A stretch of DNA of 40,500 bases, from NCBI GenBank assembly GCA_009839425.1, contig VXPS01000262.1:1-40500 (forward strand). Reading direction: 5' to 3'. The DNA is from Chloroflexota bacterium (GTDB lineage Bacteria > Chloroflexota > UBA11872). This document shows, one piece after another, positions 6,566-28,454 of this stretch. A model generated the notes under the pieces. It had not been told where the DNA came from. It saw only the letters and a program-made list of their open reading frames with translations, and searched no databases. Position numbers and translations under genes: made by a program. Numbering within the stretch: position 1 is the stretch's first letter; the number at the start of each line of letters is the position of its first letter.

Positions 6566-6652
6566 TTTCGCGGCAATTCACGTCTTGGTGCAAAAAAACG
6601 CCGTGAACAGGTTTTGAGACCATCTAGCAACCCAACATGGGGACATGAGGAC

Positions 6653-11539: not shown

Positions 11540-11614
11540 ATGCAATTGCCTTTGTTGCGGGAACACTGTATAACTATATGATTTTATGTGTATTATATAG
11601 AAGGAAGAGCAAAC
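11540..11614 (+). promoter_or_regulatory. AT-rich putative promoter and RBS region upstream of the ssp-like operon
   Basis: tgtataactatatgattttatgtgtattatatagaaggaagagcaaac precedes a GTG at 11615. aaggaag is a plausible Shine-Dalgarno sequence. Confidence 0.3.
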
Positions 11615-12805
11615 GTGACCCATCCGCGCGATAGGGCTGGAACCTTGGCCAGAAGATCCGGGTCACGCGTTCGTCAAGAACCGATCTTCCTTGATTTTCA
11701 GGCGACCACGCCACTGGATCCGGTTGTGCTCGAGGCGATGCTTCCCTGGATGAGCGGCGCGTGGAACGCCCACGCGATTGAACATGGCATGGGTCGCACA
11801 GCCAGCGCGGCAGTGGAGACGGCCAGGGAACAGGTTGCGGCGCTGCTCGGGTGTCGGTCATCCGAGATCACGTTTACTTCGGGCGCGACCGAGGCCTCGA
11901 ACATCGTCTTGCGTGGCGCCACAAGTGCTGGCGACGCAGTCGTGACGACAGAACTCGAGCACGCAAGCGTCTCGGAAACCGCCGATGACCTGGAGGCCAA
12001 TGGCAGATTCATCCATCGCGTCACGGCCAGCGAAGACGGAATCGTCGACGTCGCTGCACTTGCTGAAGCGTTGGACTCGCAGCCAGCGCTCGCGTCAATC
12101 ACCGCCGTCAACAGCGAAATCGGAACGGTCCAGCCGATCGACGACGTGGCCGCGATGTGCGCGGATCGCGACGTCCCGCTGCACAGCGACCTGACGCAGG
12201 CGGTGGGCAGGATTCCGGTGAAGCTCAGCGACTGGTTCGTGTCGTACGCCTCGATTTCCTCCCACAAGATCTACGGGCCCCAGGGGATCGGCGCACTCTT
12301 CGTTGCGGACGCCGCCGCCGCGCCCAGGCCCCTCGCGACGGGCGGAGGGCAGGAGAACGGGTTGAGACCCGGAACGCTTCCCGTTGCAAGCTGCATCGGC
12401 TTTGGTGCGGCGTGCGACCTGGCTCGGACGCGCCGGGAGCAGGATGATGCGCACGCCCAGACGCTCGCGCGCATGATGCTGAACGGGCTATCCGAACTCG
12501 AAGGATGGCAGTTGAACGGATCGCTGGAGACACGCATCCCGCACAATCTCAGTGTGGCCTTCGAAGGGGTGGATGCCGAGATGCTGCTGGCGTCGCTACC
12601 GGAGCTCGCGCTTGCAACAGGTTCAGCATGCAGCGCCGGATCGCTTCGAGGATCCGCGACGTTGCGCGCCATCAGCGTGCCGGAACCTCTGGCAAACGGC
12701 ACCATTCGGATCGGCTTCGGCCGGACCACTACCCCGGAAGAGGTCCGGACGGCCGCGAGCCTCTTGTGCGATCGTGTGCACTTGCTTCGAGGCGACGCGC
12801 CATGA
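11615..12805 (+). CDS. sspA: Class V aminotransferase-fold cysteine desulfurase (SspA/DndA/IscS-like)
   Basis: The ORF track starts at 11588; a GTG at 11615 has the better RBS. PLP-lysine motif SSHKIYGPQGIGALF, catalytic Cys loop ATGSACSAGS, N-terminal FLDFQATTPLDP. Stop overlaps the next start (ATGA). Confidence 0.82.
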   Translation: MTHPRDRAGTLARRSGSRVRQEPIFLDFQATTPLDPVVLEAMLPWMSGAWNAHAIEHGMGRTASAAVETAREQVAALLGCRSSEITFTSGATEASNIVLRGATSAGDAVVTTELEHASVSETADDLEANGRFIHRVTASEDGIVDVAALAEALDSQPALASITAVNSEIGTVQPIDDVAAMCADRDVPLHSDLTQAVGRIPVKLSDWFVSYASISSHKIYGPQGIGALFVADAAAAPRPLATGGGQENGLRPGTLPVASCIGFGAACDLARTRREQDDAHAQTLARMMLNGLSELEGWQLNGSLETRIPHNLSVAFEGVDAEMLLASLPELALATGSACSAGSLRGSATLRAISVPEPLANGTIRIGFGRTTTPEEVRTAASLLCDRVHLLRGDAP

Positions 12806-13734
12806 CGGCGACGGGTGGCCCTGACGCTCCGGAGGTCGGATGGCCGATTGTGCCCGGTCCGCGTGTCTTCTCCGGGCACGAGTCGTTCGCTTGCCGGTAC
12901 GGCTGGATCCCGAAACTGTACGAAGCTGTGATCGAGGATCCGGACCTGTTTGCGTCGGACGATCACGCGATCCTTCGGCTGGGACTCGGCCGCAACATGG
13001 TCAAGTCGCTCCGTTTCTGGGGAGAGGCGCTCCGGCTCACCCAGCGGAACGGGCGGGAGGTACACGTCACGGAGTTTGCCCGGATGCTGCTGGACCCGCG
13101 GGTCGGCCAGGACCCGTACCTTGAAACTCCGGGTGCGCTCTGGCGCCTCCACTGGACGCTGACCGTGCACGCCGGCCTGGGGGCATGGGCCGTGGTCTTC
13201 TTGGAAATGCAGGACCGTGAGATCACCAGAGAGCGACTGGTGACAGCCGTGCGCGGGTGCGCTGCGCGCGTGCGCGGAACGATTACTTCGGGCACGGCCG
13301 CCAACCATGTCAATGTGTTCCTCCAGACCTACGCGGCAAGCGAGCAGGCGGAAGGACCGCCAGAGGAGACGCTGGGCAGCCCTTTCCAGGAACTGGCGCT
13401 GGTGCGGCTGGCGGCGCCGGGCGGCGTGCCGACAGTGCGGCTCCCACGCGGCCCCAAGCGGTCGCTCGACGCGAGCGCGCTTGCCTTCATCCTGCACGAC
13501 TTCTGGCAGGGCAGCATGCCCGGGAGCGAAACCCTGTCCCTGCGGTCGCTCATGCTCGCGCGCGCTGCCCCCGGTGCAGTCCTGCTGCTGGATGAACCCG
13601 GCCTGCACGAGGCGCTCGATTCCGTCTGCTGCCGGTCGGGTAGGCTTACACTGCGGGGCGACGGAGCCGGCGGTCTGGACCTGACCTGCAAAGGTGAGCC
13701 ATTGCGCGAACTCTGGGAGATAGCTTGGTCATGA
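12802..13734 (+). CDS. sspB: DUF4007-like protein (SspB-like, putative nickase of Ssp phosphorothioation systems)
   Basis: In-frame ATG at 12802 within ORF 12505-13734. N-terminal VFSGHESFACRYGWIPKLYEAV matches the DUF4007 opening pattern as I recall it. ATGA coupling at both ends. Confidence 0.7.
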   Translation: MTATGGPDAPEVGWPIVPGPRVFSGHESFACRYGWIPKLYEAVIEDPDLFASDDHAILRLGLGRNMVKSLRFWGEALRLTQRNGREVHVTEFARMLLDPRVGQDPYLETPGALWRLHWTLTVHAGLGAWAVVFLEMQDREITRERLVTAVRGCAARVRGTITSGTAANHVNVFLQTYAASEQAEGPPEETLGSPFQELALVRLAAPGGVPTVRLPRGPKRSLDASALAFILHDFWQGSMPGSETLSLRSLMLARAAPGAVLLLDEPGLHEALDSVCCRSGRLTLRGDGAGGLDLTCKGEPLRELWEIAWS

Positions 13735-16700
13735 CCGGACCCACAGTCGCTACGCGGGTCACCGTTGGACGCCGCTACGTGCGGGCCGTCGAAATCACGC
13801 GCGACGTCGACGATCCGGATGCCCTCGACGGGTACGTCATCACGCCGTCAGTGCGCGATGCGGCCGTCCGCATTTGCGCTGGGCTGTCCCCCACCTCGAC
13901 ACAGCGTGCGTTCCGCGTTGTCGGCCCGTATGGCGCCGGAAAATCCGCGTTCGCCGTGTTCCTCGCTCAGCTCTGCCGGGAGCACGGAGAAGGACCGGCC
14001 ATGGAGCTTCTCGCGGCAGCGACCGGCGGCTCGGTGGCGATCGCGCCGTGGCGGCCGGCCGTTGTCAGCGGCCGGCGGATCAGCTTTGCACGCGAACTGC
14101 TGAGCGTCGTCGTCCGGGAATGCAGCGCTGGCACGACGGAAGTCGCAGAAGCCGCGGCACAGGCTGCTGCATTGCTGACGCGGGACGATCCACTTGATGT
14201 CCAGGAGGTTGTCGCGCTCCTTGAGTCCGCGGCTGCAGCCGTGCGGCAAACCTCCGGCGAGGGCCTGCTGCTGCTCGTTGACGAGATGGGCAGGTTCCTG
14301 GAGCACGCCGCGCTGGGTAACGAAGATCCGTCCATCTTTCAGGCGCTCGCCGAGCGGGCGGGCGGGCGCCCGGGAGCCGACCTCGCGGTCGTCGGCTTCC
14401 TCCATCACCGTTTTGCCGACTATGTGGCCGGACTGGGCAAGTGGATGGAGGCGGAATGGACACGATCGTCGGAGCGTTACGAGGAAGTGCCATTCAGCAG
14501 CTCTTCCGAACAGTCGCTCTTCATGCTGGCCCGTGCACTGACGCCGGTTCGGCGCCACACGCCTGCGGTGCGGAAACGGGCGGCCGAGCTCTATGGAGAA
14601 GCGGTGGACCGCGGCCTGTTTGCGGTGGCGCGCGAGGATGCCACTGATGTCTCGCAGACGCTGTACCCGCTGCACCCTGTGGCGGTTGCGACCCTCGTTT
14701 GGGCGATGCGGCGGTTCGGCCAGAACGAGCGATCACTGTTCAGCTTCCTGGGGTCCCTTGAACCCTCAGGTTTCCAGCGGTTCGCGCACGCCACCCGGTA
14801 CGACGCGGCGCACTGGTATCGGGCGCCGCACGCGTTCGACTACCTAGCGGCCATGATCAGCGGCTCCCCGGGGAGCGATCGTGGACGGCGATGGTCGCTG
14901 GCGTTTGACGCTGTGGCCCTTGCGGACGGCCTGCCGGGACGGCATCAGGACGTACTGAAGACCGTCGCGCTGGCGGCCGTCCTGGAACCAGTTCCCGGGT
15001 TGGTCGCCGACAACGATACGGTCGCCTGGTCCGTCGGAATGGATCCAGCGGAGACAGACCGGATTCTCGCAGATCTGGCGGAGCGCAAGCTGATCTATCG
15101 CCGATCGCACCGCCAGGACTATGCCCTCTGGTCAAGCTCCAGCGTCGATCTGTCGCAGTGGCTGGAGGATGCAAAGTTGCATGCCCGCATCCCGGAGCGC
15201 CTAGATGACGTCGAGTCCCTGTGGAAGCTCGCTCGGCCGGTGGTCGCCCACCGCCATTACCACGCCACCGGAACGCTCCGGACCTTTGAAGTTCGGCTTT
15301 GGGCAGGCGGGCAAGTCGCTGCACGCGAGGCCGACGGGCTGATCCTGATTGCACCGACCCACCCGGGCGAGGATATGGAGGCGGTGCTGCGCCAAGCGGC
15401 GGCTGCAGTTGCCGACGACCCGCTTGCACTGGTGTGCGCGCGTGCGATTCACCGGGACGACCTGGAATGGGCTCGTGAACTCACGCTGTGGCGCTGGATA
15501 CGCGAAAACTGCGACGAACTCAGGGTGGACGAACTGGCGCGAGCGGAGGTGTACGAACGCATTGCTGCGGCCGAGCGAGCGCTCACGCGGGTTGCCGCGC
15601 TCCTGTCGACGGTGAGCGACGAACGCGCGGAAGCATGGTGGCATGCAGGCAAGCCGGTCACCATGCCCAAGGGACTAAGCGCTTTCCTCAGCGACATCTG
15701 CGATCGCGTGTACGATGAGGCCCCGATCCTGAAGAACGAACTTATCAACCGTAGACGCCTCTCGGCGGCTGGCGCCAGCGCTCGAATGCGCCTGCTGGAC
15801 AGAATGCTCAGCAGTGCCAATCGCGATCAGCTGGGAATGGACAGCGCTCCACCCGAGCGCACGATCTTTCGATCCGTGTTCCTGACGTCCGGCATGCATA
15901 CGCCAACAAGCAATGGCATGTTCGCCTTCGCTCTACCCAGTCTGTCGGACCCGTGCCGCTGGAGACCGGTCTGGCAACGCATTGAGGAGCTGATCCACAC
16001 TGACGAGCCCATTGGTTTCGGCGTCCTCATGGACGAGTTGGGGCGGCCACCGTACGGCTTGCGCGCCGGACCGGCCCTGCTCGTGATCGTGGCAATCATC
16101 CTGGCGTCGAGACTTCATGTTGCGGTCATGGAGCGAAACAGCTTCGTGCCTGAACTGTCGGTGGCGCATCTGATGCGGCTCGCCAAGTCGCCAAACCGTT
16201 TTGCTGTCAAGTCCCTGCACGAGGGTGCCGCACGAAAGGGAGTTGTGCGGGCACTGGCCGCACGGCTGCAGGTTGCGGGAGCGCGTTCTGCAACACTGCA
16301 CGCACTTTCCGAGTGGCTCTTCACCTGGTACAACGCGCTACCCGTTTACGCGTTGCAGACCCGGACGATCTCCCCTGTCGCGCTCGCAGTCCGCACCGCG
16401 CTGCGCAAGGCATCGGAACCCGGACTTTTGTTCTTTCATGAACTGCCGGCAGCGTGCGCTGCACTGCGCGACCGCGGACGGATCGATATCGAACGCTATC
16501 TTGACGTGCTTGACGACGCGTTGCGCGAAATTGGTGACGCTGCGCCCAAGCTACGGATGCGAGCTGCTGCCGCTACCCAGGAAGCATTCGGCGCCGATGA
16601 TATCGCGACGCTCCGTTCCCGGTTCCAGGACGACTACCCACCGCACTGCCTGGAAAGACTGGATGATCGACTGCGGAACTTCGTGGAGCGAGCGATCGAT

Positions 16701-17093
16701 GCGCAAAGGACCGACGATGAATGGCTGGACCGGATCGCAGGCCATGTGTCCGGTCATCGGCCGGAGAGCTGGGACGACGACACGCTCAACCAGTTCGCAG
16801 TGGAAATCCGGGCCATGGCCGGCAATCTGGCGCGCTGGCTCGCCTTGGCCGGAACCCGGCCGGGGTGCGGAACGGATCTGCAAAGCGTCCACGTTGTCGG
16901 GCTCAACGGGCAGGAACGCGTCGTCGTTGTCCGCCGTGACCGGCCGAACCCGCAGCTGCACAGCCGGCTGAACGCGGTGCGGGAGGCTCTCGGTAACGAG
17001 CCCAACGCCGTGGAGGTGCTGGGGCACCTCCTCGCCGAATACACGGAAGGCCATGTCGGTTGGCAGGAGAGAAAAGCGGTCAGTTCGACATGA
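13731..17093 (+). CDS. sspC: Large P-loop ATPase (SspC-like / DUF499-BrxC-like)
   Basis: About 1120 aa. Walker A VVGPYGAGKSAFAV, Walker B-like LLLLVDEMGRF. ATG at 13731 overlaps the upstream TGA. Its own stop overlaps the next ATG. Confidence 0.68.
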   Translation: MTGPTVATRVTVGRRYVRAVEITRDVDDPDALDGYVITPSVRDAAVRICAGLSPTSTQRAFRVVGPYGAGKSAFAVFLAQLCREHGEGPAMELLAAATGGSVAIAPWRPAVVSGRRISFARELLSVVVRECSAGTTEVAEAAAQAAALLTRDDPLDVQEVVALLESAAAAVRQTSGEGLLLLVDEMGRFLEHAALGNEDPSIFQALAERAGGRPGADLAVVGFLHHRFADYVAGLGKWMEAEWTRSSERYEEVPFSSSSEQSLFMLARALTPVRRHTPAVRKRAAELYGEAVDRGLFAVAREDATDVSQTLYPLHPVAVATLVWAMRRFGQNERSLFSFLGSLEPSGFQRFAHATRYDAAHWYRAPHAFDYLAAMISGSPGSDRGRRWSLAFDAVALADGLPGRHQDVLKTVALAAVLEPVPGLVADNDTVAWSVGMDPAETDRILADLAERKLIYRRSHRQDYALWSSSSVDLSQWLEDAKLHARIPERLDDVESLWKLARPVVAHRHYHATGTLRTFEVRLWAGGQVAAREADGLILIAPTHPGEDMEAVLRQAAAAVADDPLALVCARAIHRDDLEWARELTLWRWIRENCDELRVDELARAEVYERIAAAERALTRVAALLSTVSDERAEAWWHAGKPVTMPKGLSAFLSDICDRVYDEAPILKNELINRRRLSAAGASARMRLLDRMLSSANRDQLGMDSAPPERTIFRSVFLTSGMHTPTSNGMFAFALPSLSDPCRWRPVWQRIEELIHTDEPIGFGVLMDELGRPPYGLRAGPALLVIVAIILASRLHVAVMERNSFVPELSVAHLMRLAKSPNRFAVKSLHEGAARKGVVRALAARLQVAGARSATLHALSEWLFTWYNALPVYALQTRTISPVALAVRTALRKASEPGLLFFHELPAACAALRDRGRIDIERYLDVLDDALREIGDAAPKLRMRAAAATQEAFGADDIATLRSRFQDDYPPHCLERLDDRLRNFVERAIDAQRTDDEWLDRIAGHVSGHRPESWDDDTLNQFAVEIRAMAGNLARWLALAGTRPGCGTDLQSVHVVGLNGQERVVVVRRDRPNPQLHSRLNAVREALGNEPNAVEVLGHLLAEYTEGHVGWQERKAVSST

Positions 17094-17890
17094 GGCACAT
17101 TCTCAGCCTCTCCGGCGGCAAGGATTCGGCGGCACTCGCCATCTACATGCGCGATCGCGTGCCCGAGATGGAGTACGTCTTCTCCGATACCCGCAAGGAG
17201 CTCCCGGAAACGTACGCGTACCTGGAGCGGATCGAGGACTATCTGGGAAGGCGGGTAAACCGGCTCAACGCCGAGCTGGGCTTCGACCACTGGTACGAGG
17301 TCTACGGCGGGATGATTCCCTCAAACCACCGCCGATGGTGCACCAAAATGCTCAAGCTCAAGCCGTTCGAGCAATTCGTAGGTGACGATCCCGTACGCAA
17401 CTACGTCGGGTTGCGCGCCGACGAGAACCGTTCTGGCTACATCAGCCACAAGCCAAACATTACGCCGGTCTATCCATTCCAGCAGGACGGGCTGAAGCTC
17501 GAGGACATCGAGGAAATCCTGCAATCTTCGGGAATCGGGATGCCGCCCTACACGGCATGGGGCCGGTCCCGGTCGGGATGCTACTTCTGCTTTTACCAGC
17601 AGAAAATCGAATGGGTTCGCTTGAAGGAGCAGCACCCGGAGCTCTTCGAGGCAGCAAAGGCCTACGAACGGCCGTTTGCGGGCAGCGGCAACACGTTCAC
17701 CTGGAGCCAGCAGGAATCGCTGACGGAGCTGGAACGGCCAGAGCGTGTGCAAGCAATCAAGGACGAGCACACCCGCCGCCAGGCCGCAAGGAAGGCCAGT
17801 GGCGCGGACCTGACGCTCGCCGAGGTCTACCGACGCCGCGCCGCACAGGACGACGCGGATGATGACGCCTGCCTGATCTGTCACCTGTAA
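17090..17890 (+). CDS. sspD: PAPS reductase/ATP pyrophosphatase-fold protein (SspD-like)
   Basis: PP-loop SLSGGKDSAA near the N-terminus. C-terminal CYFCFYQQ and DDACLICHL Cys motifs. ATG at 17090 in ORF 17060-17890. Confidence 0.8.
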   Translation: MRHILSLSGGKDSAALAIYMRDRVPEMEYVFSDTRKELPETYAYLERIEDYLGRRVNRLNAELGFDHWYEVYGGMIPSNHRRWCTKMLKLKPFEQFVGDDPVRNYVGLRADENRSGYISHKPNITPVYPFQQDGLKLEDIEEILQSSGIGMPPYTAWGRSRSGCYFCFYQQKIEWVRLKEQHPELFEAAKAYERPFAGSGNTFTWSQQESLTELERPERVQAIKDEHTRRQAARKASGADLTLAEVYRRRAAQDDADDDACLICHL

Positions 17891-17900
17891 GGGCGCCACG

Positions 17901-20252
17901 ATGAGCTTCAAGTTTGCGGCCCGCACGATCCTGGAGCTTGGCAAGGAACTGATCAGCTCCGACGAGGTGGCGCTCTACGAGTTGATCAAGAACGCGGTCG
18001 ACGCCGGGTCGCCACGCATCGAAATTGCCGTGCACAACCTGCTGGGTGGATCCCGATACCGTGAAGCAGTCGAGCGCCTCACGGAAGAAGGCCAGAGCCG
18101 GTCCGAGGTTCTGAAGTTCGTCCGCGCGGGACTGGTCGATTCGGACAGACCGGTTTCCGAGGAACTCCTGGCCAGTCTCAAGAAATGTTCGGGCAACAGG
18201 AGTTTCCTGCAAACGCTCCGGTCATTCCATGACGACGTGAACTACATCGAGATCCGGGATACCGGACATGGAATGAGTCTGGACGAGTTGAAGGACGTCT
18301 TTCTCCGGATCGGGACGTACTCCCGCCGGAACGAAAATCTGAAGGGCGCGCAACACCTGGGAGACAAGGGCATCGGGCGTCTTTCGGCAATGCGGCTGGG
18401 CGATCGTTTACGGGTCACCACCACGAAGCGCGGCGAGCAATACTGGAACCTGCTGGACATCGACTGGGCACTGTTCGCGGGCGATGAGGATGTCGATGCA
18501 GACTCCATCAGCCTTGAACCCGAACTTGGGGACGAGAAGATCGACCGCGACAAGCAGGGAACGGTCGTCCGCATTTCGGCGCTGCGGGGCGATTGGGACA
18601 AAGAGCGGTTTACGGACATGCTGCAGGGCAAGGTTGCCCGGATGGTCGATCCGTTCATCCGTGGTAACGCCAACCGTCTGATCGTTGCCAGGCACAATGG
18701 TACGCGAGTGCAAGTGCCGTCCATTCGAGCAACGCTGCTCCGAGCCGCGCATGCCGTCTGCCATGTGGAGTTTCGCATGGAGGATGACACGCCGGTCATC
18801 GAAGGCGAGATCAACTACCGGCTTCGGCATCGGAAGCGGCGGATCGATGCCCAAGGCCCCGAGCTCTACTCACTCACGCAGGAAGCGGTCAAGCGGCGGG
18901 CAAAACGGGGACACGCCGCGTTCAGATTGATCCCGATACGGCCAGCTGCCCTGAAACGCTTGGATCATTTCAAGTGCGACATTTACTGGTTCAACCGCAA
19001 TGCGTTAGTGGGCGTCGAGGGCCTCAGCGAGGGACGGGACGAAACCCGGAAGCAGATCTCATACTGGAGCGGTGGCCCGATGCTCTATCGGTACGGGTAC
19101 CGCATCCTGCCCTACGGGGATCTTGATGATGACTGGCTGGGACTGGACGAAGCAGCTTTCGGGGCCAGCGGGTTCAAGCTCAATCGTCAGCAGGTGATCG
19201 GGCGGGTGCGCATCGACACACCCCACAGCGCATTGAGTGAGAAGACCGACCGCGAGGGCCTGATCGACTCCGACACATTCAACGCGCTGCAGAAGATCCT
19301 GATTTGGATCGTGCATACGGAAATGCGCGGGTTGATCAACCTGGCTGACAAACTGGAACAGGACAAGGGACGTGAGGCCGATCTGGACACGCAGACCGTC
19401 GCGAAAATGCGTGCCCGAGTCGAAGCGGCACTTCAGCGCCTGTGTGAACAGGTTGGTGATTCGTCTGCCGCCGAAATCAAGTCCCTCTCACGCAGCGTAG
19501 AGAGCCTTGCGAAGCACTCCCAGGATCTCGTCGAACGGATCGACGGCGTCATCAAAGAGGCTGATCAAGAGCGTGAAAAATACGTCTACCTTGCGGGCAT
19601 CGGCCTGATGACCGAGTTCATCTTCCATGAACTCGAGAGGGCAGTTTCCCATGCAATGGAGGCCGTGTCCGGCCGCACACTAAGACAGTCGACGATCGAA
19701 TCCCTGCGCGAACAGCTGAAGACGCTGCACAAGCGAATCGCTGCGTTCGATGAGCTCACGACCGAGAAACGGCAAAGGAAGTCGACTGTTGACCTCGCCG
19801 AAGTTGTCGACCTCACCCTGGAGAATCACATTCGCAAATTCGAGCGACACGGAATCGTCGCAAGTGTCGAACCGCCAGACCGTTCCTTCAAGGTGAAGGC
19901 TGTGCGCGGAATGGTCATCCAGATCCTTGAGAACCTCATCGTCAATGCGGCCTATTGGCTCAAGGAGCAGAGACAGTTCGAAACCGACTTTAGGCCGACA
20001 TTGAAAGTGAGCCTCGATGCCGATGCCAAGACGGTGACGGTGGAGGACAATGGCCCGGGAGTGATCGTCGACCGGCGCGAGCATATCTTTCAGCCCTTTA
20101 TTTCATTGAAGCCGTCTGGGCTCGGTCGAGGTCTCGGGCTGTACATCTCCCGTGAGATGGCCGAATATCACGGTTGGAAGCTTCGCATGACCGAGGACGT
20201 CGGCCGTGTGCGTGACGGGCGATTGAACGCGTTTGTGCTTGATATGGGGTAA
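17901..20252 (+). CDS. Dual GHKL protein: N-terminal Hsp90/MORC-type ATPase module plus C-terminal histidine-kinase core (H-box + HATPase_c)
   Basis: N-terminal module: YELIKNAVDAG (N-box), IRDTGHGMS (G1), GDKGIGRLSAMRLG (G2). C-terminal module: FIFHELERAV (H-box-like), ILENLIVNAAYW (N), VEDNGPGV (G1), IFQPF (F), GLGRGLGLYISRE (G2). Starts 10 nt after sspD. Confidence 0.8.
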   Translation: MSFKFAARTILELGKELISSDEVALYELIKNAVDAGSPRIEIAVHNLLGGSRYREAVERLTEEGQSRSEVLKFVRAGLVDSDRPVSEELLASLKKCSGNRSFLQTLRSFHDDVNYIEIRDTGHGMSLDELKDVFLRIGTYSRRNENLKGAQHLGDKGIGRLSAMRLGDRLRVTTTKRGEQYWNLLDIDWALFAGDEDVDADSISLEPELGDEKIDRDKQGTVVRISALRGDWDKERFTDMLQGKVARMVDPFIRGNANRLIVARHNGTRVQVPSIRATLLRAAHAVCHVEFRMEDDTPVIEGEINYRLRHRKRRIDAQGPELYSLTQEAVKRRAKRGHAAFRLIPIRPAALKRLDHFKCDIYWFNRNALVGVEGLSEGRDETRKQISYWSGGPMLYRYGYRILPYGDLDDDWLGLDEAAFGASGFKLNRQQVIGRVRIDTPHSALSEKTDREGLIDSDTFNALQKILIWIVHTEMRGLINLADKLEQDKGREADLDTQTVAKMRARVEAALQRLCEQVGDSSAAEIKSLSRSVESLAKHSQDLVERIDGVIKEADQEREKYVYLAGIGLMTEFIFHELERAVSHAMEAVSGRTLRQSTIESLREQLKTLHKRIAAFDELTTEKRQRKSTVDLAEVVDLTLENHIRKFERHGIVASVEPPDRSFKVKAVRGMVIQILENLIVNAAYWLKEQRQFETDFRPTLKVSLDADAKTVTVEDNGPGVIVDRREHIFQPFISLKPSGLGRGLGLYISREMAEYHGWKLRMTEDVGRVRDGRLNAFVLDMG

Positions 20253-20254
20253 CG

Positions 20255-22201
20255 ATGGACCACGCCAAGCGTATCATTCAGGCATTCAAGTCGAACGAGA
20301 TCCAGAGAATTCTGCTGGTCGATGACGCGTATGATCCCCCGGATCTCGATGAAGATGTCACGGCGCCGGTGGCCGATTTTCTGTTAACGGAGGAGGGTCT
20401 AGCAGCCTGCGAAGACTGCGGAATCGAACCAGATACACGTGAGCGAGCAGCCAGTGCCGCGGAGGCAGGGGATCCCACCAACCCGGCACTTGTGGAAATG
20501 TATCATGCCCTCTACGCAAGGTTTACCGAAACCGGCGAGGAGCGGTTTGATCCTGGTGAACGGTTTCGCCTTATCAAGGAAGGCGCGCTGAAGGATCTTC
20601 ACCCGCTACGCGCTTTCCTGGGACAGTGCGGTGACGGTATACAAGTGCGGACGGTTGGCCTGGACAACGCCCCGGCCTGCTTCGGAGAGTTTCGACCGCA
20701 AGTCTTGTTTCTTGACTACTACCTGAGCGACGATGTTCCCCCCACGGGCGACGTGAGCGAAGGCAAGAAGGAACAGGCAAGGAAAGCATCGCTCGATCTG
20801 CTGCGACAGTTGGTGGAAACCAAAGACATCGATGGCATTCCGGCGATCGTGCTCATGTCCTCCCGGGAAATAGCTGACGTCAACAGTTACCGGCACGATC
20901 TGGGAGAGCCGCACGTCCTCGCCCTCCGGTTTCACTTCCTGCAAAAGCGATCGATCCTGTACAAGGATGGCAAACTCGTCCCGGAGCTGGATGCCGTCAA
21001 TGCGCTTCTGAATACAAGTCAGGGCTACCTGTTCCGCCAGCAGGTTCAGCACGCGCTCGCACAATGGAAAAATGGTGCGGAAGATGCGCTTCGCGCATTC
21101 ATGGAAAATGTCAGCGATCTGGAAACGAAAGATTTTGCCTACCTCCTGCGTTTCCGGCTTCGCGAGGACGGACAGACGCTGGGCGACTATTTGGACTGGT
21201 TTTTTGGTGAATGCCTGAAAGGCTTCGTCGAGGAGAAGGTCGACTGGCAACACAGTTCGTTCGCGTCCCTCAATGCAGACGGGCGCCCTGAGCAGGGAAT
21301 CGAAGGTGCCTTCGAAGGACCATCCCCCACTATCGCAAGGTTGTTTCACCGCGTGCGGGTGACAAGCCGTCGGGGACACCCGGGGATGGATTATCGACTG
21401 GGCGATCTATTTGCCGAGCGCAGGACGAACCGCATTTGCACAGTGATCACGCCAGATTGCGACCTCGTACAACGAAACGGCCCACCGAAAGCCGAAAGCG
21501 TCCTCACCATGAGGGGCACCGTCAAGTCGTTCGATGATGAGAACAGTTCCGCTGACGACTTCCTGCTCCTGAAGGACGGGCTCTGCAGTGTTCGGTGGGA
21601 TCCGAAAGACCTGCAGACCTTTCCCTACAGCGGGCGGGGGGCGCTGGCCACCCACTACAGGTTCAAGTTTCTCGGTACTTTGCGTCCACTCTATGCGCAA
21701 GAGATTCAGCGACGGGCGCTGACGGATCTTGCCCGTGTTGGCCTGCCGGTCGCTCCGGCATTTGGAATCAACACTCCCGCCAGCGTCTGGGTGCGGGAGG
21801 CGGGACGACACTTCACCGAGATACACCTGTCGAGTCAGGCAATTGCAACCATGGTTCCGCCTCGGACAGGAGAACACCAGGTTGCCAAGTTCGTGCTCCG
21901 GCGCAGGTTTCTTGATGAAATGATCACCAAATTGAGCCAGATAGCACCGGATTCCATGTCCAGCGGAGATCATGGCTCGCTCCGCGCGCTTCAAACGGAA
22001 GATGCACTTGAGAAGCTGTATGCCACGTTTCTGATCGACGGCGGCCGGATTGGCGACAACTGTTACGGGATCGGGCTCACCATGGGAACAGAGCCCCGCC
22101 AAGGAAAAAAGGCAAATTGGCTGCAGATTGTCCTCGGAACCCCCGCCGACGTGATGGAAACAATCGTTACCTTCGATCCCATCACGAATGCATCCGGTTA
22201 G
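20255..22201 (+). CDS. Receiver (REC)-like N-terminal domain protein with a large uncharacterised C-terminal domain
   Basis: RILLVDDAYD (acidic pocket), VLFLDYYLSDD (candidate phospho-Asp), AIVLMSS and FLQKR in REC-like order, with an insertion of about 110 aa after strand 1. The C-terminal 400 aa have no motif I recognise. Start is 2 nt after the upstream stop. Confidence 0.65.
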   Translation: MDHAKRIIQAFKSNEIQRILLVDDAYDPPDLDEDVTAPVADFLLTEEGLAACEDCGIEPDTRERAASAAEAGDPTNPALVEMYHALYARFTETGEERFDPGERFRLIKEGALKDLHPLRAFLGQCGDGIQVRTVGLDNAPACFGEFRPQVLFLDYYLSDDVPPTGDVSEGKKEQARKASLDLLRQLVETKDIDGIPAIVLMSSREIADVNSYRHDLGEPHVLALRFHFLQKRSILYKDGKLVPELDAVNALLNTSQGYLFRQQVQHALAQWKNGAEDALRAFMENVSDLETKDFAYLLRFRLREDGQTLGDYLDWFFGECLKGFVEEKVDWQHSSFASLNADGRPEQGIEGAFEGPSPTIARLFHRVRVTSRRGHPGMDYRLGDLFAERRTNRICTVITPDCDLVQRNGPPKAESVLTMRGTVKSFDDENSSADDFLLLKDGLCSVRWDPKDLQTFPYSGRGALATHYRFKFLGTLRPLYAQEIQRRALTDLARVGLPVAPAFGINTPASVWVREAGRHFTEIHLSSQAIATMVPPRTGEHQVAKFVLRRRFLDEMITKLSQIAPDSMSSGDHGSLRALQTEDALEKLYATFLIDGGRIGDNCYGIGLTMGTEPRQGKKANWLQIVLGTPADVMETIVTFDPITNASG

Positions 22202-22637
22202 CAGCCCGTAAGCCCGGCTACCGGTTCTGCGACCCCGAGATGGCTCGACGCGAGAAGCCCTTCGCATCCAGGTGTTCGCGCTGATCGATCACACCCGGAC
22301 CGCGCCAGGAAACAGCCTTGCCGCTGGCCAGCGGGCCTGCCAGAGGACGCTGTACAGCGCCTCGATCGACGGGGTCGGCCCGCACGCCGCGACCACGTCC
22401 CCACCTGTCCCAGCACGCCTTGAGGGTCGCCGCTTCTTTCGAGACGCGCAGCCAAGGCCCGCAGCCCTGCCCGTCTTGCGGTATCCAACGCTTCCTTCGA
22501 GATCCCGTGTATGTCGGCCGCTTCCGCTGCATGAACCAGCGCGGCCGCCTGCTCCGCATACCAGAGGCGGCGCGCTGCCTCCGAGCTCGGATCGGATCGC
22601 CCGAGCACCAAAGGCGGGCCGGCGAGGTCGCGGCCGC

Positions 22638-23318
22638 GAACGAGCCGTTGAACGACTCGATGAAGGCGTTGTCGGTGGGCTTGCCCGGCCTTGAGAAGTC
22701 GAGTGTCACGCCGTTGAGCCAGGCCCACAGATCAAGCGCCTTGCTGATGAACTCGGGCCCGTTGTCGAGGCGGATCGTCTTCGGTGTGCCGTAGACGCGA
22801 GTGACCCGCTCCAGTGTCTCGACCACGTCCGTGCCGCGGTAGTGCGGCCGCACGTCGATCGCCGGCGAGAGCCGGCTGTAGGCATCGACGATGGTGAGGA
22901 TGCGGATCCTGCGCCCGTTGAACAGCTGGTCCGAGAGGAAGTCCATCGCCCACACCTGGTTCGGCGCTGCGGGCGGAGAGCGGTCCCCGCGAAGCTTCGC
23001 CGCGACCCGGCGCTTGGGCGTCTTATGGCGCAGTTGCAGGCCTTCCTCGGTGTAGAGCCGGTAGATCCGCTTCACGTTCACCTGCCAGCCTTCGCGTCGC
23101 AGGAGCACGTGGATCCGGCGATACCCGTAGCGTACCCGGGTCTCGGCGATCTCGCGGATGCGCTGGCTCAGGACCGCCTGCGATGGCCGGCGGGCGGCGT
23201 AGTGGTAGCTCGACCGGCCGGCTCCCAGCACCGCGCATACGCGCCGGATGCTCACCTGCCAGACCTCCCGAGTCTCGTCGACCAGCTCCCGCCGCCGCGC
23301 CGGCCCTAGAGCTTTTTT
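22638..23318 (-). pseudogene. IS3-family transposase OrfB (rve/DDE), C-terminal part missing or scrambled
   Basis: WAMDF, TIVDAYSR, LDNGPEF and KPTDNAFIESFNG motifs are present. After FNGSF, none of the three frames shows the expected ECLN...WF...RPH tail. Confidence 0.7.
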
Positions 23319-23623
23319 CGCACCACCTCCTGGAGCATCTCCTTGTCGAGACTCAGGTCCGCCACCAGCCGCTTCAGGCGCTGGTTCTCCTCCTCGAGCT
23401 GCTTGAGACGCTTCATCTCGGAGGGCATCAGCCCGCCGTACTTCTTGCGCCATCGGTAATACGTCTGCGCGGAGATCCCCGCCTTCCGGCAGACCTCCTC
23501 GACCCGCGTCCCTTCCTCCGCCTGGCGCAGGATGAACGCAATCTGCTGCTCGCTGAACTTCGACCGTTTCATGGCCTCTTCCCCACTGGGTCCATGAAAA
23601 CCTATCCGAGAATTCTCTCGCAA
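23306..23623 (-). CDS. IS3-family transposase OrfA (HTH + leucine zipper)
   Basis: MKRSKFSEQQIAFILRQAEEGTRVEEVCRKAGISAQTYYRWRKKYGGLMPSEMKRLKQLEEENQRLKRLVADLSLDKEMLQ is a textbook IS3/IS407 OrfA. Confidence 0.88.
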   Translation of the reverse strand: MRENSRIGFHGPSGEEAMKRSKFSEQQIAFILRQAEEGTRVEEVCRKAGISAQTYYRWRKKYGGLMPSEMKRLKQLEEENQRLKRLVADLSLDKEMLQEVVRKKL

Positions 23624-24519: not shown

Positions 24520-27288
24520 TTGCCAATGCCGTCAAACGACGAGAATTTCTCCCGCGTCCACGAACCGGACGCAGCCGCCCAAGTCCCTTTCTCCTACGAC
24601 CTTGCGGAACCGGTTGAGGCCGCCGACGCCGAGGACCTGAGGATCGGCCTCTGGCCCTGGTCCGTACTCAGGGACCGGCTGGTCAACGTCACCGACGAAG
24701 GCCTGGACTGGATCCGCGACAGCATCCGCCAGCTGGGCCGGCACGTCCGTGGACACGGCTCGAACGTCCGCTCGCGATTCTGGTCCGAAAAGAACCGGAT
24801 GATCGTGCCGTGCGAATCCCGCACGGTCGAGCGCCCGCTGTTCACGAGCATGGAGATCGACCGCGCGGTCGCCTGGTATCTGGCGCAGCTCCAGCCGCTG
24901 GACCTGACGGGTGTCGATGCGCGGGGCCGGACCCTGCCGATCACCAAGACCTTCGACGCGCTGGTCGGGCTCGTGAGCGGCGAGGTGTTCGTCGCCGAGT
25001 TCAGGAGCGAGGAACAGCTCCGGGCGCAGCTCCGGGACCAGCCGCACCTCTACCGGCAGGAAGGGGACGTCGTGCGGTACACGCCGTACGGGGAGATGGC
25101 GGAGCGCTTCGGGATCCCCGACCGGGTCCTGACCCCCGCGAACCTCCCGAAGATGGCCATCACCAACTGGGAGCTGCTCAAGGGGTATTCCCGGCGCCGC
25201 GTGAGTGAGGCCGACTTCCAACGCGTGCGGGAGGCCGTGCGCGACCGCCCCGCAACCGTGGTCGAGGTCGCTCAACAGGCGGAGGTCCCGGTGGACGTCG
25301 TGCTGGCGGCGATCGCCCGCGGCGTGGTCTTCGTGGACGTCAACCGGCAGCTCGTGGTGGAGACGGAGACCACGCTGGTCCACGCGTCGTTCGCGACGTT
25401 CGTGGCCTACACCGACGCTCCTCGCGGGGCCGCTACGGGCGTCCGGGTCATCGCCGGCCTGCGGGACGGCACGGTGGCCAGCTGGGACAGCGACCCGGTG
25501 GAGCTCGTGCACGTCGGCCAGACCAGGGTCGTGGTGCGCTGGGAGGGCAGCGGGCGCATCGTCGAGGTGCCCATCGCGGACTTCGAACGTTTCGTGCAGG
25601 ACGGCACGGTGGGGCTGCCCACGACGGATCTGTCCGCCGACCCCGTCGCCGAGGCCCTGGCGCGCTCCAATCAGCGCGAGCGCGACGTCGCGACCGATCG
25701 CGCCAGTGTGATCCGGCTGGTCCTCGACGGCCAGCTGTCGAAGGAACAGGCTGCCGAAGCGCTGGGCGTGAAGTCCCCCCGGACGATCGAGCGCCACATG
25801 CGCGATTACCGCCAGTTGGGCTGGGCCGGGTGCGTCCCGAACTGGCGAGCCCGCGGCAACCGCAAGCGGCGGATCTCCGTCGGGCGGCTGGTGGGGATGG
25901 ATGCGGCCATCGCCACCTACTACGTGGGCAAGAACGGCTTCGCCAAGCCGAAACGCACGATGGAAGCGGCCTACAAGATGTACCGGGAAAATTCCCCCGA
26001 CCCCGTGTCCCTGGCGACGTTCAAGCGCCGGATCCGCGAGCTTGCGGGCCTCGAGCAGACACGCCACCGGGACGGCGACCGGGCCGCGAACCGGTTCCGG
26101 ACGGCGCGGGGCCGCGACCCGTTCGTGGACCTGTACCCGCTGCACGTCATCCAGGTCGATGCCACGCTCGGCGACATCTTCCTCACGCTGCTCGAGTCGG
26201 TGCTCGGCCATGACGCGTTTCTGGTGCGTCCGCAGGTCTCGATCGCCGTCGATGTCTTTTCACAGTGTGTGGTCGGCCTCTACGTGTCCCTCGGGGGCGA
26301 GTCCGCGGCCACGGCGCTGATGCTCCTGCGGGACGTGGTCCGCCGCCACGGGCGGATGGCCGACATCGTCCTGATGGACAACGGCGCCGGCTACCGCTCC
26401 AAGGACGTGCAGAACTTCGTCGTCGGGATCTGCGGCCGGGAGCTGCAGCACCGGGCGCCGCACCGCCCGCAGATCGGCGGGATCTGCGAGCGACTGTTCG
26501 AGACCATGCGGGCCGAGCTCTTGGTGTCCATGGCCGGCCAGACGTCGCGCCTCAAGGCGGTGCGCGAGGTCACGAAGTCAATGGATCCGCGGCGCGACGC
26601 CGCGTGGACCCTGGCGGCGTTCACCGGGATCCTCGAGCACTTCTTCTTCGAGATCTACAACCGGCGCGTGCACCCGGGCGTGGACATGGCGCCCCTCGAG
26701 AAGCTGGAGCAGGGCTACCTCCTCCGGGGGTACCGCGAGCAGCAGCGGGTGGCGTTCGATGCGAACCTGCTCGCCGCCACCTCGCCGTCGTGCGGAACGC
26801 GGCAGATCGACCCGAAACTGGGTGTCTGGGTCGACTACCGGCGGTTCCGGAATGCCGAGGTCTCGAAGCGGTTCCACGGCCGCGACGACCGCACCGTCGA
26901 GGTCAGGCGGGAACCCGACGATTGCACGCTGGTGCGGGTCCTGGCGGACCGCCAGTGGGAGGAGTTCACGAGCGACGACCGCCCTCTGCTGCAGTCGTAC
27001 AGCGCCGCCGACCAAGTCGCGATCAGCAAGGCGTACCGGGCCGTGAAGGCCAGCGTGCGCCGCGAGCGGGGCCGGAAAGGCTTTGGCCTCGGTGCCTTCC
27101 TCACGCGCATCCACGAGGCGCAGGAAGCCGTCCTGAAGGAACGACGGTCGGCCGAGCGGCGGCGGGCGTCCGATGCCGGGTCCGGGCGCACCGTCCGCCG
27201 TCCGGACAAGGCCCGGAAAGGGGCCGGCACGGGCCTGTCGCTGGATTTCCTCGACCGCGATGCGAAGCACTTCGGGGAGGACGGCTGA
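24520..27288 (+). CDS. tniA: TniA/TnsB-type DDE transposase (Mu/rve superfamily), unusually long
   Basis: 922 aa. DDE context HVIQVDATLGDIF, IVLMDNGAGYRS, IGGICERLFETM. N-terminal and central HTH-like segments. Followed by TniB-like and TniQ-like genes with overlapping stops and starts. Confidence 0.82.
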   Translation: MPMPSNDENFSRVHEPDAAAQVPFSYDLAEPVEAADAEDLRIGLWPWSVLRDRLVNVTDEGLDWIRDSIRQLGRHVRGHGSNVRSRFWSEKNRMIVPCESRTVERPLFTSMEIDRAVAWYLAQLQPLDLTGVDARGRTLPITKTFDALVGLVSGEVFVAEFRSEEQLRAQLRDQPHLYRQEGDVVRYTPYGEMAERFGIPDRVLTPANLPKMAITNWELLKGYSRRRVSEADFQRVREAVRDRPATVVEVAQQAEVPVDVVLAAIARGVVFVDVNRQLVVETETTLVHASFATFVAYTDAPRGAATGVRVIAGLRDGTVASWDSDPVELVHVGQTRVVVRWEGSGRIVEVPIADFERFVQDGTVGLPTTDLSADPVAEALARSNQRERDVATDRASVIRLVLDGQLSKEQAAEALGVKSPRTIERHMRDYRQLGWAGCVPNWRARGNRKRRISVGRLVGMDAAIATYYVGKNGFAKPKRTMEAAYKMYRENSPDPVSLATFKRRIRELAGLEQTRHRDGDRAANRFRTARGRDPFVDLYPLHVIQVDATLGDIFLTLLESVLGHDAFLVRPQVSIAVDVFSQCVVGLYVSLGGESAATALMLLRDVVRRHGRMADIVLMDNGAGYRSKDVQNFVVGICGRELQHRAPHRPQIGGICERLFETMRAELLVSMAGQTSRLKAVREVTKSMDPRRDAAWTLAAFTGILEHFFFEIYNRRVHPGVDMAPLEKLEQGYLLRGYREQQRVAFDANLLAATSPSCGTRQIDPKLGVWVDYRRFRNAEVSKRFHGRDDRTVEVRREPDDCTLVRVLADRQWEEFTSDDRPLLQSYSAADQVAISKAYRAVKASVRRERGRKGFGLGAFLTRIHEAQEAVLKERRSAERRRASDAGSGRTVRRPDKARKGAGTGLSLDFLDRDAKHFGEDG

Positions 27289-28454
27289 TGCCCGGGCCGG
27301 TGCCGGCCGGGCGGGACCGCCCGCTCGAGAGAATTATCGCGGCGATGCGCAAGACCGTCGTGTCGCACCCCGCCCACGATGCCGCGTGCACGACGCTCCG
27401 GAAATTCCTGTCGGCGCGCGAGGGCGCCGTCTGCCTCGTGACGGGGCCGAAAGACGCGGGCCGGAGCACGGTGGCCCGGGCCGTCTTCGGCCCGCGCAAA
27501 GATGCGCTGGTCGTGCGCACGCCGGCGGGTCCGCTGGCCGGCCGGGGGTTCCGCGCCACGCGGCTCCTGGAGGCCATCCTGCGGACCGGCAAGGCGCCGA
27601 TGGTCGATGGCCTGGTGGCTCATCAGCTGCCCCTGATGACCCGGGACGGGCGCGTGCTCGTGATCATGCCGGACCCGTCCCGCCAGGGGGGCCGGGACGC
27701 GGCGGAGGCGACCCTCGTGGGTGCGATCAGCCAGATGAGGAAATACCGCGGCGTCCGGTTCCTGGTGCTCGATGACGCGGATCCCCTGGTCGGGCTGTCG
27801 AGCGTGGAGCACGTCGACTGGATCCTCCGGGTGGCGCGCGAGGTCGGGCTGCGCCTGGTCCTGGTGACGTCCAACCACACGGCCGCCACGGTGCTGGAGA
27901 AGCTCGCGCACGCGGTCGAGTGGCACCTGGTCGAGGTGCAGCGGTACACGTCCCGGTCGGGTCCCGGCGCGTTCACCGGGTTCCGCGACGCCCTGGAGGA
28001 GCTGCTGGAAGCGGTTCCCGAGGTCCGTTTCCCGCCGCTCGGGAGCACCGAGTTCTACTACGTGTCCTGCTATTCCCTCGGCTGTTTCGGCCGCGCCTGC
28101 CAGTACCTTGAGACGCTGGTGGCGAGGGCGCTCGCCAAGCAGGGCGCCGCGCGGGGCATCCTCACGGTCGAGGACATGCGCCTGGACGGGGCCGCGGAGG
28201 AGCGCCTGCATGTGCTGCTGAGCGCCATCGAAGAGGGCGAGGAGCGGCTGCGCAACATCTTGTCGGCGGGGCGGGACGGCCGGCCCCTGCACCAACGGCT
28301 GGGTCTGGCCGTGCCGTCCGAATCGAAGTCGGCATCGGAGGACGAACTCGAACCCGGGCCGGCGCCGAAGGGCAATGGCATCCACCGGCCGCGGGTGGGC
28401 GACCCGGCCCTGGACCGGATCGGCGAGGCCCAGATCGCGGAACTCGGGTTTTGA
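27288..28454 (+). CDS. tniB: TniB/TnsC-like AAA+ regulator with deviant Walker A
   Basis: ATG at 27288 shares its first base (A) with the last base of the tniA TGA. Deviant Walker A region CLVTGPKDAGRSTVARAV, Walker B RFLVLDDAD. Position between tniA and tniQ. Confidence 0.68.
   Translation: MPGPVPAGRDRPLERIIAAMRKTVVSHPAHDAACTTLRKFLSAREGAVCLVTGPKDAGRSTVARAVFGPRKDALVVRTPAGPLAGRGFRATRLLEAILRTGKAPMVDGLVAHQLPLMTRDGRVLVIMPDPSRQGGRDAAEATLVGAISQMRKYRGVRFLVLDDADPLVGLSSVEHVDWILRVAREVGLRLVLVTSNHTAATVLEKLAHAVEWHLVEVQRYTSRSGPGAFTGFRDALEELLEAVPEVRFPPLGSTEFYYVSCYSLGCFGRACQYLETLVARALAKQGAARGILTVEDMRLDGAAEERLHVLLSAIEEGEERLRNILSAGRDGRPLHQRLGLAVPSESKSASEDELEPGPAPKGNGIHRPRVGDPALDRIGEAQIAELGF

Follow-up and report, generated by a model that had tools for sequence, protein, structure and literature searches.

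A MORC/Hsp90-headed histidine kinase and a cryptic response regulator as a probable two-component effector module of Ssp systems

Two restriction modules are known to stand beside the phosphorothioate (PT) modification genes of Ssp systems: SspE, a DUF262 GTPase with an HNH-type nickase, and SspFGH, a Walker-A protein with an FtsK/HerA-like translocase. In a 2021 survey, about 84% of the sspBCD loci had no known restriction partner (PMC8092258). Here we describe two genes directly behind sspABCD in a 40,500-nt stretch of DNA from a Chloroflexota bacterium (assembly GCA_009839425.1, contig VXPS01000262.1, positions 1 to 40,500 of the forward strand), hereafter called the window. The first (17901–20252) encodes a predicted double-GHKL histidine kinase of 783 residues, and the second (20255–22201) a partner protein of 648 residues with a putative hidden receiver and effector domains. 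Coordinates refer to the window, and features lie on the plus strand unless stated otherwise. We interpreted the pair as a soluble MORC/Hsp90-headed histidine kinase and its response regulator, together forming a two-component effector module of Ssp immunity, and give this reading a probability of roughly 0.6.

The pair resembles SspE and SspFGH in lying next to sspBCD and being mobile with it, and it co-occurs with SspFGH as SspE does (PMC8092258). It has, however, no sequence or domain relation to SspE or to SspFGH.

In Detocs (DtcA/DtcB/DtcC), His-Asp phosphotransfer to a non-transcriptional effector is an anti-phage mechanism, and both the His and the Asp are needed for defence (bioRxiv 10.1101/2023.01.24.525353). 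The present pair shares with it the arrangement of a cytoplasmic histidine kinase acting towards a response regulator that carries an effector output and not a transcription factor. Detocs senses through TPR repeats and includes a 'buffer' receiver as its third protein; its effector is usually a PNP ATP-nucleosidase, and it has no tie to DNA modification. The present pair, in contrast, has a second GHKL module as its presumed sensor, no TPR, no third receiver gene and an unrelated effector, and is bound to SspABCD. PADLOC gave no Detocs-type match for the kinase or the partner, in a release that may not include Detocs models.

The kinase also has relatives on both of its sides. Like MORC and paraMORC proteins, it has a HATPase_c_3-type GHKL module with a middle domain, stands in a DNA-modification defence locus, and matches the fold of DNA-bound MORC2. 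The described paraMORCs, however, have S5, nuclease or TIR domains at their ends and helicases or nucleases as partners, and that work describes none in which a histidine-kinase core is fused on or a receiver protein is the partner (Iyer, Abhiman and Aravind 2008, PMC2292703).

With the class I (HisKA-type) kinases HK853, ThkA and LvrB it shares the His-Glu H-box, the DHp hairpin, the N, G1, F and G2 boxes and a full cytoplasmic core. It differs from them in having no transmembrane, PAS, HAMP or GAF input, a second Bergerat-fold ATPase being the input, and no Pfam HisKA match. Its residue at His+4 is always Arg in the orthologs, a position at which Thr or Asn is found in many HisKA kinases. 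A kinase module at an epigenetic-mark defence locus is also found in the Schlafen RNase–'minimal histidine kinase'–winged helix-turn-helix protein near BREX and BREX-related loci, which differs in its RNase fused to the kinase, the absence of a second GHKL module and of a receiver partner, and its host system (PMC12839542).

In the searchable literature, from which subscription journals were missing, the pair was not described, including the papers on SspFGH, on Dnd/BREX comparative genomics and on paraMORC and one SspE paper of 2026; nor was it described in PMC10853773, PMC12839542, PMC2292703, PMC7159879 or PMC13251355. Within this literature it is apparently a widespread, undescribed Ssp partner pair.

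The kinase gene is an uninterrupted reading frame. An initial annotation, made from the letters alone, had proposed that one polypeptide carries two distinct GHKL modules plus an H-box, and this was borne out by Pfam, Foldseek and ortholog conservation. The boxes were found where it had placed them: in the N-terminal module ELIKNAVDAG at residues 27–36, DTGHGMS at 120–126 and GDKGIGRLS at 154–162, and in the kinase core FIFHELERAV at 573–582, NLIVNAAYW at 678–686, DNGPGV at 716–721, IFQPF at 729–733 and GLGRGLGLY at 740–748.

When the two modules were aligned to Pfam, as the annotation had proposed, both matched far above the gathering scores: HATPase_c_3 at residues 113–221 (E 2.6e-18) and HATPase_c at residues 672–768 (E 6e-21). 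HATPase_c_3 is the MutL/MORC/Hsp90-type model. The protein was rightly described as lacking transmembrane segments (its Kyte-Doolittle mean over 19 residues peaked at 1.1), and neither a classical sensor domain nor a membrane domain was found.

The N-terminal head spans residues 1–230 (17901–18590), as judged from the HATPase_c_3 match, the fold and the conservation. It contains motif I (E27/N31/D34), G1 (D120-x-G122-x-G124) and G2 (G154-x-K156-G157-x-G159), with a four-helix insert at residues 46–113. The AlphaFold2 model of the kinase had a mean predicted local distance difference test score (pLDDT) of 75, and in the head the means of 10-residue blocks were 81–95 over residues ~21–130 and 160–190.

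In Foldseek, the N-terminal ~530–555 columns matched the MORC2 ATPase–DNA complex (9cdh/9cdj, E 5e-9) and TRAP1/Hsp90 (4j0b, E 5.7e-9). The Bergerat fold that had been proposed for the N-terminus was thus seen in the predicted structure. With NCBIfam, the stretch 112–247 matched the head that BbrUII/HgiDII restriction enzymes have as their GHKL module (NF050001, E 1.5e-14, a score well short of the cut-off), and PADLOC gave only weak matches to REase_II and to the GHKL of MzaB. These profiles supported the assignment of the N-terminal module as a MORC/paraMORC-like GHKL, which among profiles comes closest to the GHKL heads found in restriction enzymes of the BbrUII/HgiDII type.

The region between the two modules had been described as a coiled coil of about 300 residues. 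This part of the annotation did not hold. The AlphaFold2 model showed an α/β middle domain of about 225 residues, followed by a coiled coil of about 100 residues. The 'transducer'-like middle domain (residues 231–457, 18591–19271) was delimited by AlphaFold2 secondary structure, Foldseek and invariant columns. It aligned with the middle regions of MORC2 and TRAP1 with template modelling (TM) scores of only 0.45 and 0.32 on the target. Its low-confidence loops contain many basic residues that are invariant (R332, R333 and K335; K426 and R429; R435). The long helical, coiled-coil-like connector follows at residues 458–560 (19272–19580); the AlphaFold2 helices ran over 458–495 and 499–590.

The TRAP1/Hsp90 match was about as good as that to MORC2, which would also fit a head that senses a protein, such as a phage protein or an Ssp component, as an Hsp90-like client clamp, and not DNA. 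Against such a protein sensor stand the Pfam assignment to HATPase_c_3 (MORC/MutL-type), the restriction enzymes and MzaB as nearest profiles, the many invariant basic residues of the middle domain, and a system context that is a DNA-backbone mark. We consider it improbable.

The DHp hairpin (residues 561–620, 19581–19760) carries the H-box GLMTEFIFHELxR, in which the putative phosphoacceptor H576 is encoded at 19626–19628. It was assigned from conservation, the alignment to LvrB and ThkA, and the HK853 fold. A profile built from 74 homologs matched 36 solved histidine kinases, including LvrB (E 2e-17) and ThkA (E 6e-13), and in the profile alignments H576 fell on the H-box His of LvrB (8vc9) and ThkA (3a0r).

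The fold of this region agreed with the annotation as well. In Foldseek, the C-terminal ~245 residues aligned with HK853 over its entire DHp+CA core (E 1.3e-10, TM 0.62 on the target), in a monomer model in which the DHp has a pLDDT below 50. In NCBIfam, residues ~577–768 aligned to many sensor kinases. The CA domain (residues 621–783 plus stop, 19761–20252; HATPase_c, conservation and the 36 solved kinases) has the N box (N678, N682), G1 (D716-x-G-x-G720), the F box (F730, F733) and G2 (G742-x-G744-x-G746).

Both modules thus appear to be active GHKL ATPases, the H-box and DHp genuine and the protein cytoplasmic; of the proposed architecture only the length of the coiled coil, most of which was folded middle domain, failed. 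From this architecture the annotation had drawn a cytoplasmic DNA-state sensor kinase; such a kinase is compatible with these results, the sensing of DNA being its conjectural part.

More than 120 full-length homologs with both Pfam domains were found at 58–72% identity. To follow conservation further, 50 kinase loci were taken from contigs of one genome per species, with identity down to 34–36%. Residues were counted in 48 orthologs, and 'invariant' means present in every sequence covering the column.

Motif I (E27, N31, D34) was kept in 47/47, and the N-terminal G1 (D120, G122, G124) and G2 (G154, K156, G157, G159) in 48/48. Glu in motif I (here E27) is the catalytic Glu typical of hydrolysing GHKLs. 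In the kinase core, H576-E577 was found in all 48, and the H-box block at 568–578 (GLMTEFIFHEL) followed by R580 was invariant. All 48 also had N678, N682, D716, G720 and G746, while G718, F730, G742 and G744 were present in 47/48 and F733 in 46/48. The same catalytic residues were kept in an ortholog from Acinetobacter baumannii with 27% identity. Judged from these alignments, both kinase active sites are under purifying selection.

Most of the significance of the gene comes from three features absent from the annotation: the operon shared with sspABCD, the nature of the downstream neighbour and the conserved tie to Ssp systems. The kinase reading is made credible by this neighbour, a putative response regulator in disguise. 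The partner had no match in Pfam, NCBIfam or PADLOC, and its relatives are all annotated 'hypothetical'. Its AlphaFold2 model (pLDDT 85) showed the (βα)5 order of a receiver at residues 15–245 (20297–20989), with strands β1 at 18–22, β2 at 130–134, β3 at 150–154, β4 at 197–202 and β5 at 226–230. A helical insert of ~90 residues (33–124) lies between β1 and β2.

The receiver quintet stood on these strands as in CheY: D23/D24 follow β1, D154 (codon 20714–20716) closes β3, S202 closes β4 and K231 follows β5. In 48 partner orthologs D23-D24 (ILLVDD), D154 (VLFLDYYL), S202 (VLMSS) and K231 (FLQK) were invariant. A HMMER search of the full library with the partner gave 867 representatives at the 50% clustering level. 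Among diverse full-length representatives at this level, D23, D24, D154 and S202 were present in 91/91 and K231 in 89/91.

The partner N-terminus was also compared by hhalign with CheY, Spo0F, PhoB and NtrC. D154 was aligned to D57, S202 to T87 and K231 to K109. Global alignment failed because of the insert, and local mode or excision of the insert worked. The P-value was 1.2e-3 with the insert kept, and 2.9e-6 (probability 88%) with it excised, a choice made with the hypothesis known.

Foldseek matched the receiver domains of KdpE, MtrA, NarL, Spo0A and CheB with probabilities of 0.82–0.99 and TM scores of 0.25–0.59 on the target (0.45–0.59 for isolated receivers). All these matches had E > 0.01, because the query was a 648-residue multi-domain protein. 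In the viral library BFVD a 'response regulator' was matched with a probability of 0.90. A sequence search of the PDB with the partner profile gave only a chance troponin match. From the conservation and the model we identified the partner as a putative cryptic response regulator, with its receiver masked by the helical insert.

The conserved residues also bear on a reading in which the kinase core transfers no phosphate. The protein would then be a paraMORC-type clamp that uses DHp/CA for dimerization and a second ATPase cycle, and the partner a pseudo-receiver that docks a nuclease or toxin. In restriction-modification systems, paraMORC GHKL proteins do act together with nucleases (PMC2292703), type II restriction enzymes have the GHKL heads nearest to the N-terminal head, and neither HisKA nor Response_reg of Pfam was matched. 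On the other hand, H576-E577 is invariant and the receiver quintet invariant or nearly so (K231 in 89/91), also at 27% identity. Pseudo-kinases and pseudo-receivers usually lose the His or the Asp. A clamp that transfers no phosphate was therefore judged quite unlikely.

The two genes form a translationally coupled two-gene module: the kinase stop codon is separated from the partner ATG by 2 nt, and in essentially all of the 50 kinase-anchored loci the partner gene overlapped or abutted the kinase gene. Ssp genes were present within 10 kb in 45/50 of these loci. Of these, 39 had sspB, sspC or sspD, mostly immediately upstream, and 6 more had SspFGH instead (PADLOC E down to 0). The remaining 5 were one with an SspA-like gene only, three truncated contigs, and one (L050 in our numbering of loci) with Tn-like neighbours only.

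The reverse search was anchored on SspD and covered the best 80 of at least 401 matches, a sample biased to SspD sequences like the query and like those with a known link to the pair. In these 80, kinase and/or partner were found in 64, SspFGH in 22 (8 of them with the kinase), and neither in 2, one being a 3-kb contig. Four distant relatives of the partner (profile E 1e-38 to 1e-65) were all preceded by a protein of ~750–810 residues with HATPase_c_3 and HATPase_c, and the three on contigs long enough upstream also followed sspBCD.

The position of the pair relative to the Ssp genes varied by lineage (downstream, convergent or upstream), and the linkage persisted. The adjacency recurred in more than 100 loci in several gene orders. 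The hosts spanned at least 10 phyla, and plasmids also carried the pair. Pseudomonadota, Acidobacteriota, Bacteroidota, Planctomycetota, Spirochaetota, Thermodesulfobacteriota, Latescibacterota, Verrucomicrobiota, Chloroflexota, Gemmatimonadota and Armatimonadota were among them.

That an ordinary housekeeping sensor kinase came to lie beside sspABCD by chance would agree with the public names of the kinase, 'sensor histidine kinase' or 'ATP-binding protein'. It is contradicted by this neighbourhood analysis, with adjacency in so many loci, phyla and gene orders, and it fits poorly with a kinase that has no membrane or classical sensor domain. We regard it as extremely improbable. Ssp systems have in this pair a conserved accessory, which usually stands in the place of sspE and in some loci alongside sspFGH. 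That the two proteins are a true kinase and receiver dedicated to Ssp systems is likely. In function the pair would correspond to SspE or SspFGH of other Ssp systems.

When identities to the window proteins were compared across loci, a crude measure, rho was 0.88 for kinase and partner and 0.94 for SspB and SspD. It was only 0.43–0.45 between the kinase and SspB or SspD. This suggested that kinase and partner move together when they pass from one Ssp lineage to another.

In roughly one fifth of the loci SspFGH, confirmed by PADLOC, lay directly beside the pair (L003, L004, L009, L012, L024, L031, L032, L041, L044, L046, L049 and several of L057–L135). A single SspBCD thus seems to bear two stacked effector modules, an arrangement reported for SspE with SspFGH. 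The idea that the pair is SspE or SspFGH in disguise was rejected: the PADLOC models of SspE, SspF, SspG and SspH gave no match to kinase or partner, and those of SspF, SspG and SspH strongly matched neighbouring genes in related loci, never the pair.

Some loci departed from the usual arrangement. TniQ, TniB or Mu-transposase genes stood beside either the pair or the Ssp cluster in L050 and L055/L056. In a divergent subclade, a third conserved gene (~806 residues, without Pfam or PADLOC match) directly followed the partner (L052 12662–15082, L053 12304–14727 and L054 12256–14679) and may be an extra component.

In L017 (3402–9668) no sspBCD preceded the pair, and four genes (668, 295, 294 [weak DUF6339] and 432 residues), an SspA-like desulfurase and an sspD fragment were found in that place. 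These upstream genes may be a different or decayed modification module. Examples of module decay or insertion are L008, in which the partner was split and displaced (fragments 14526–14945 and 16667–17779), and L038, in which the kinase was broken into two open reading frames.

Behind the receiver, three regions were distinguished in the partner. A helical domain with conserved KDFAYLLRFRL, Y312 and W315 (residues 246–370, 20990–21364; AlphaFold2, conservation) is followed by a β-barrel with a C-terminal helix (375–495, 21377–21739; conservation, Foldseek) and by an α/β region with conserved P501 and R537 (496–648 plus stop, 21740–22201; AlphaFold2, conservation). A second near-invariant motif, G383-D384 ... 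C402-D403-L404 ... W448 ... R494-x-G496 ... P501, runs through the barrel into the last region.

In Foldseek the barrel matched MazF (7d2n) and CcdB (7epi) with probabilities of 0.93–0.99 and TM scores of 0.52–0.58 on the target (E ~0.06–0.1). PemK-like and endoribonuclease matches were obtained in BFVD (probability 0.84, E ~0.06–0.1). The strand order and the opening G-D motif agreed with MazF. The model thus pointed to residues 375–495 as possibly a PemK/MazF/CcdB-like barrel.

The output region and the linkage bear together on a purely regulatory role, in which the pair would be a two-component system that follows the state of DNA or its PT marks and tunes the activity or level of SspABCD (PT homeostasis or epigenetic control) and does no harm to phage or host. 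Linkage between the pair and the modification genes is tight, PT marks are known to be both partial and dynamic (PMC8092258), and 'a role in epigenetics' has been raised in a study of A. baumannii (PMC12421847). However, a search of the partner with Pfam, NCBIfam and Foldseek found no helix-turn-helix or other recognised regulatory output. Further, the pair sits in the sspE slot and co-occurs with sspFGH the way sspE does, and its shuffling between Ssp lineages fits the reading of a DNA mark better than the binding of specific Ssp proteins. A regulatory role was judged unlikely.

The two-component effector reading itself suggests a mechanism. GHKL clamps of the MutL, Hsp90 and MORC type combine a constitutive C-terminal dimer with an ATP-driven N-terminal closure (family knowledge; PMC2292703). 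The kinase would dimerize through the DHp, as its family does, so that the DHp would serve as the C-terminal dimerizer. ATP-dependent closure of the two N-terminal GHKL heads would then trap or read DNA, as in MORC, MutL and Hsp90, with an outcome set by the PT marks from SspABCD. That the kinase reads DNA or the PT state through its MORC-like head has, in our estimate, a little less than an even chance.

The state of the clamp would be passed through the coiled coil to the DHp and switch the autophosphorylation of H576, for which the invariant catalytic residues speak. The phosphoryl group would go from H576 to D154 of the partner, whose acceptor quintet is invariant (K231 in 89/91). The C-terminal domains of the partner would thereby be released and could halt the infection by attack on nucleic acid or by cell arrest. 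The trigger could be PT-DNA, as for SspE, or unmodified DNA, as for SspFGH. Tentatively, and with somewhat less than an even chance, the pair would add a third class of SspABCD effector, possibly the most common one, in which a DNA clamp-kinase turns the PT state into a His-to-Asp relay to a toxin-type regulator.

Several results weigh against this interpretation. In the kinase of the window no HisKA-type profile of Pfam was matched at E <= 0.01, and the DHp helices were of low confidence in the AlphaFold2 monomer. In the partner, and in 12 relatives scanned, Response_reg of Pfam gave no match even at E <= 0.1–1, and NCBIfam did not recognise the receiver of the partner. Its best hhalign value needed excision of the insert, and no Foldseek receiver match was obtained at E <= 1e-3. 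The MazF/CcdB-like assignment came from weak Foldseek matches and was not supported by profile–profile comparison: hhalign of residues 370–560 with MazF/Kid/EndoA and CcdB gave probabilities below 1%. The SspD-anchored prevalence was biased by the choice of SspD sequences. Binding of DNA or PT, autophosphorylation, phosphotransfer, toxicity and phage defence are all steps that we infer.

If the reading is true, a conserved pair in the sspE slot could be the missing effector of the partner-less sspBCD loci. It would add a phosphorelay-based discrimination of self and non-self DNA to PT immunity, and would be the first two-component system with an epigenetic DNA-backbone mark as its input. Histidine kinases would gain a new kind of input domain in the form of a second GHKL ATPase that works as a DNA clamp, and a large family of unrecognised response regulators would come to light, the 867 clusters at 50% identity having no Pfam annotation among those examined. 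H576, D154, E27/N31 and C402/D403 are residues open to point mutation.

The same reading would supply the missing 'nuclease' of the Ssp system in A. baumannii global clone 2. In this species 5,518 of 5,530 Ssp systems have no sspE (PMC12421847). In strain VB1190 (L136, CP040048.1 546593–550847) an ortholog pair with 27% identity lies convergent with sspD-C-B. Its genes are annotated 'sensor histidine kinase' (FDE89_18550) and 'hypothetical protein' (FDE89_18555). The kinase had a weak match to HEF_HK (E 0.0023, below the cut-off), and the partner contains KKILIIDD, LLIVDWFL, IILLTS, LIKK and ITQPCDL, with the receiver quintet present.

One passing remark in the A. baumannii study, which offers the role in epigenetics as an alternative, may concern this pair (PMC12421847). 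The remark is ambiguous, because a canonical HAMP kinase and regulator also lie near the pair in the VB1190 genome. CP040048.1 is labelled a 658-kb plasmid; it carries ribonucleotide reductase and yajC, and therefore looks chromosomal.

In the window, the kinase is the fifth gene of the sspABCD operon. The first is sspA, a cysteine desulfurase (11588–12805; PADLOC SspA E 1.3e-113, Pfam Aminotran_5 E 2.4e-65), of which the listed start may be upstream of the true one. It is followed by sspB (12505–13734; PADLOC SspB E 1.6e-70, Pfam DUF4007 E 2.4e-56), sspC, a BrxC/PglY-like ATPase (13725–17093; PADLOC SspC E 4.8e-238), and sspD, a PAPS-reductase-like protein (17060–17890; PADLOC SspD E 3.7e-116, Pfam PAPS_reduct).

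The listed reading frames of sspA and sspB overlap by 300 nt. The true start of sspB is probably near 12868, later than 12505, because the SspB profile match begins at residue 122. The stop codon of sspD lies 10 nt before the kinase ATG, and no promoter-like or terminator-like site inside the cluster was found above chance expectation.

The kinase and partner genes have a GC content of 57–59%, against 69% in the right flank of the window. An IS3-type transposase gene (rve, HTH_21; 22218–23453, minus strand) begins 17 nt after the partner stop codon, and a set of TniA-like (HTH + rve), TniB-like (AAA_22) and TniQ genes follows at 24520–29347. The Ssp island therefore abuts mobile elements.

Further genes were noted in the flanks. 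On the left is a RES-domain protein (1662–2357, minus strand; Pfam RES E 1.7e-33), of the type that acts as the toxin in RES-Xre toxin-antitoxin pairs. Also upstream of the Ssp operon lies a DUF2971 protein that has a weak match to RAMA (restriction enzyme adenine methylase associated) as well (6614–8068), and its gene may be a further member of a defence island. On the right, at 33225–40131, come two RTX repeat proteins with 17 and 14 HemolysinCabind stretches, then an ABC transporter and an HlyD-family protein. These genes form a type I secretion locus with a GC content of ~69%, above that of the Ssp island.

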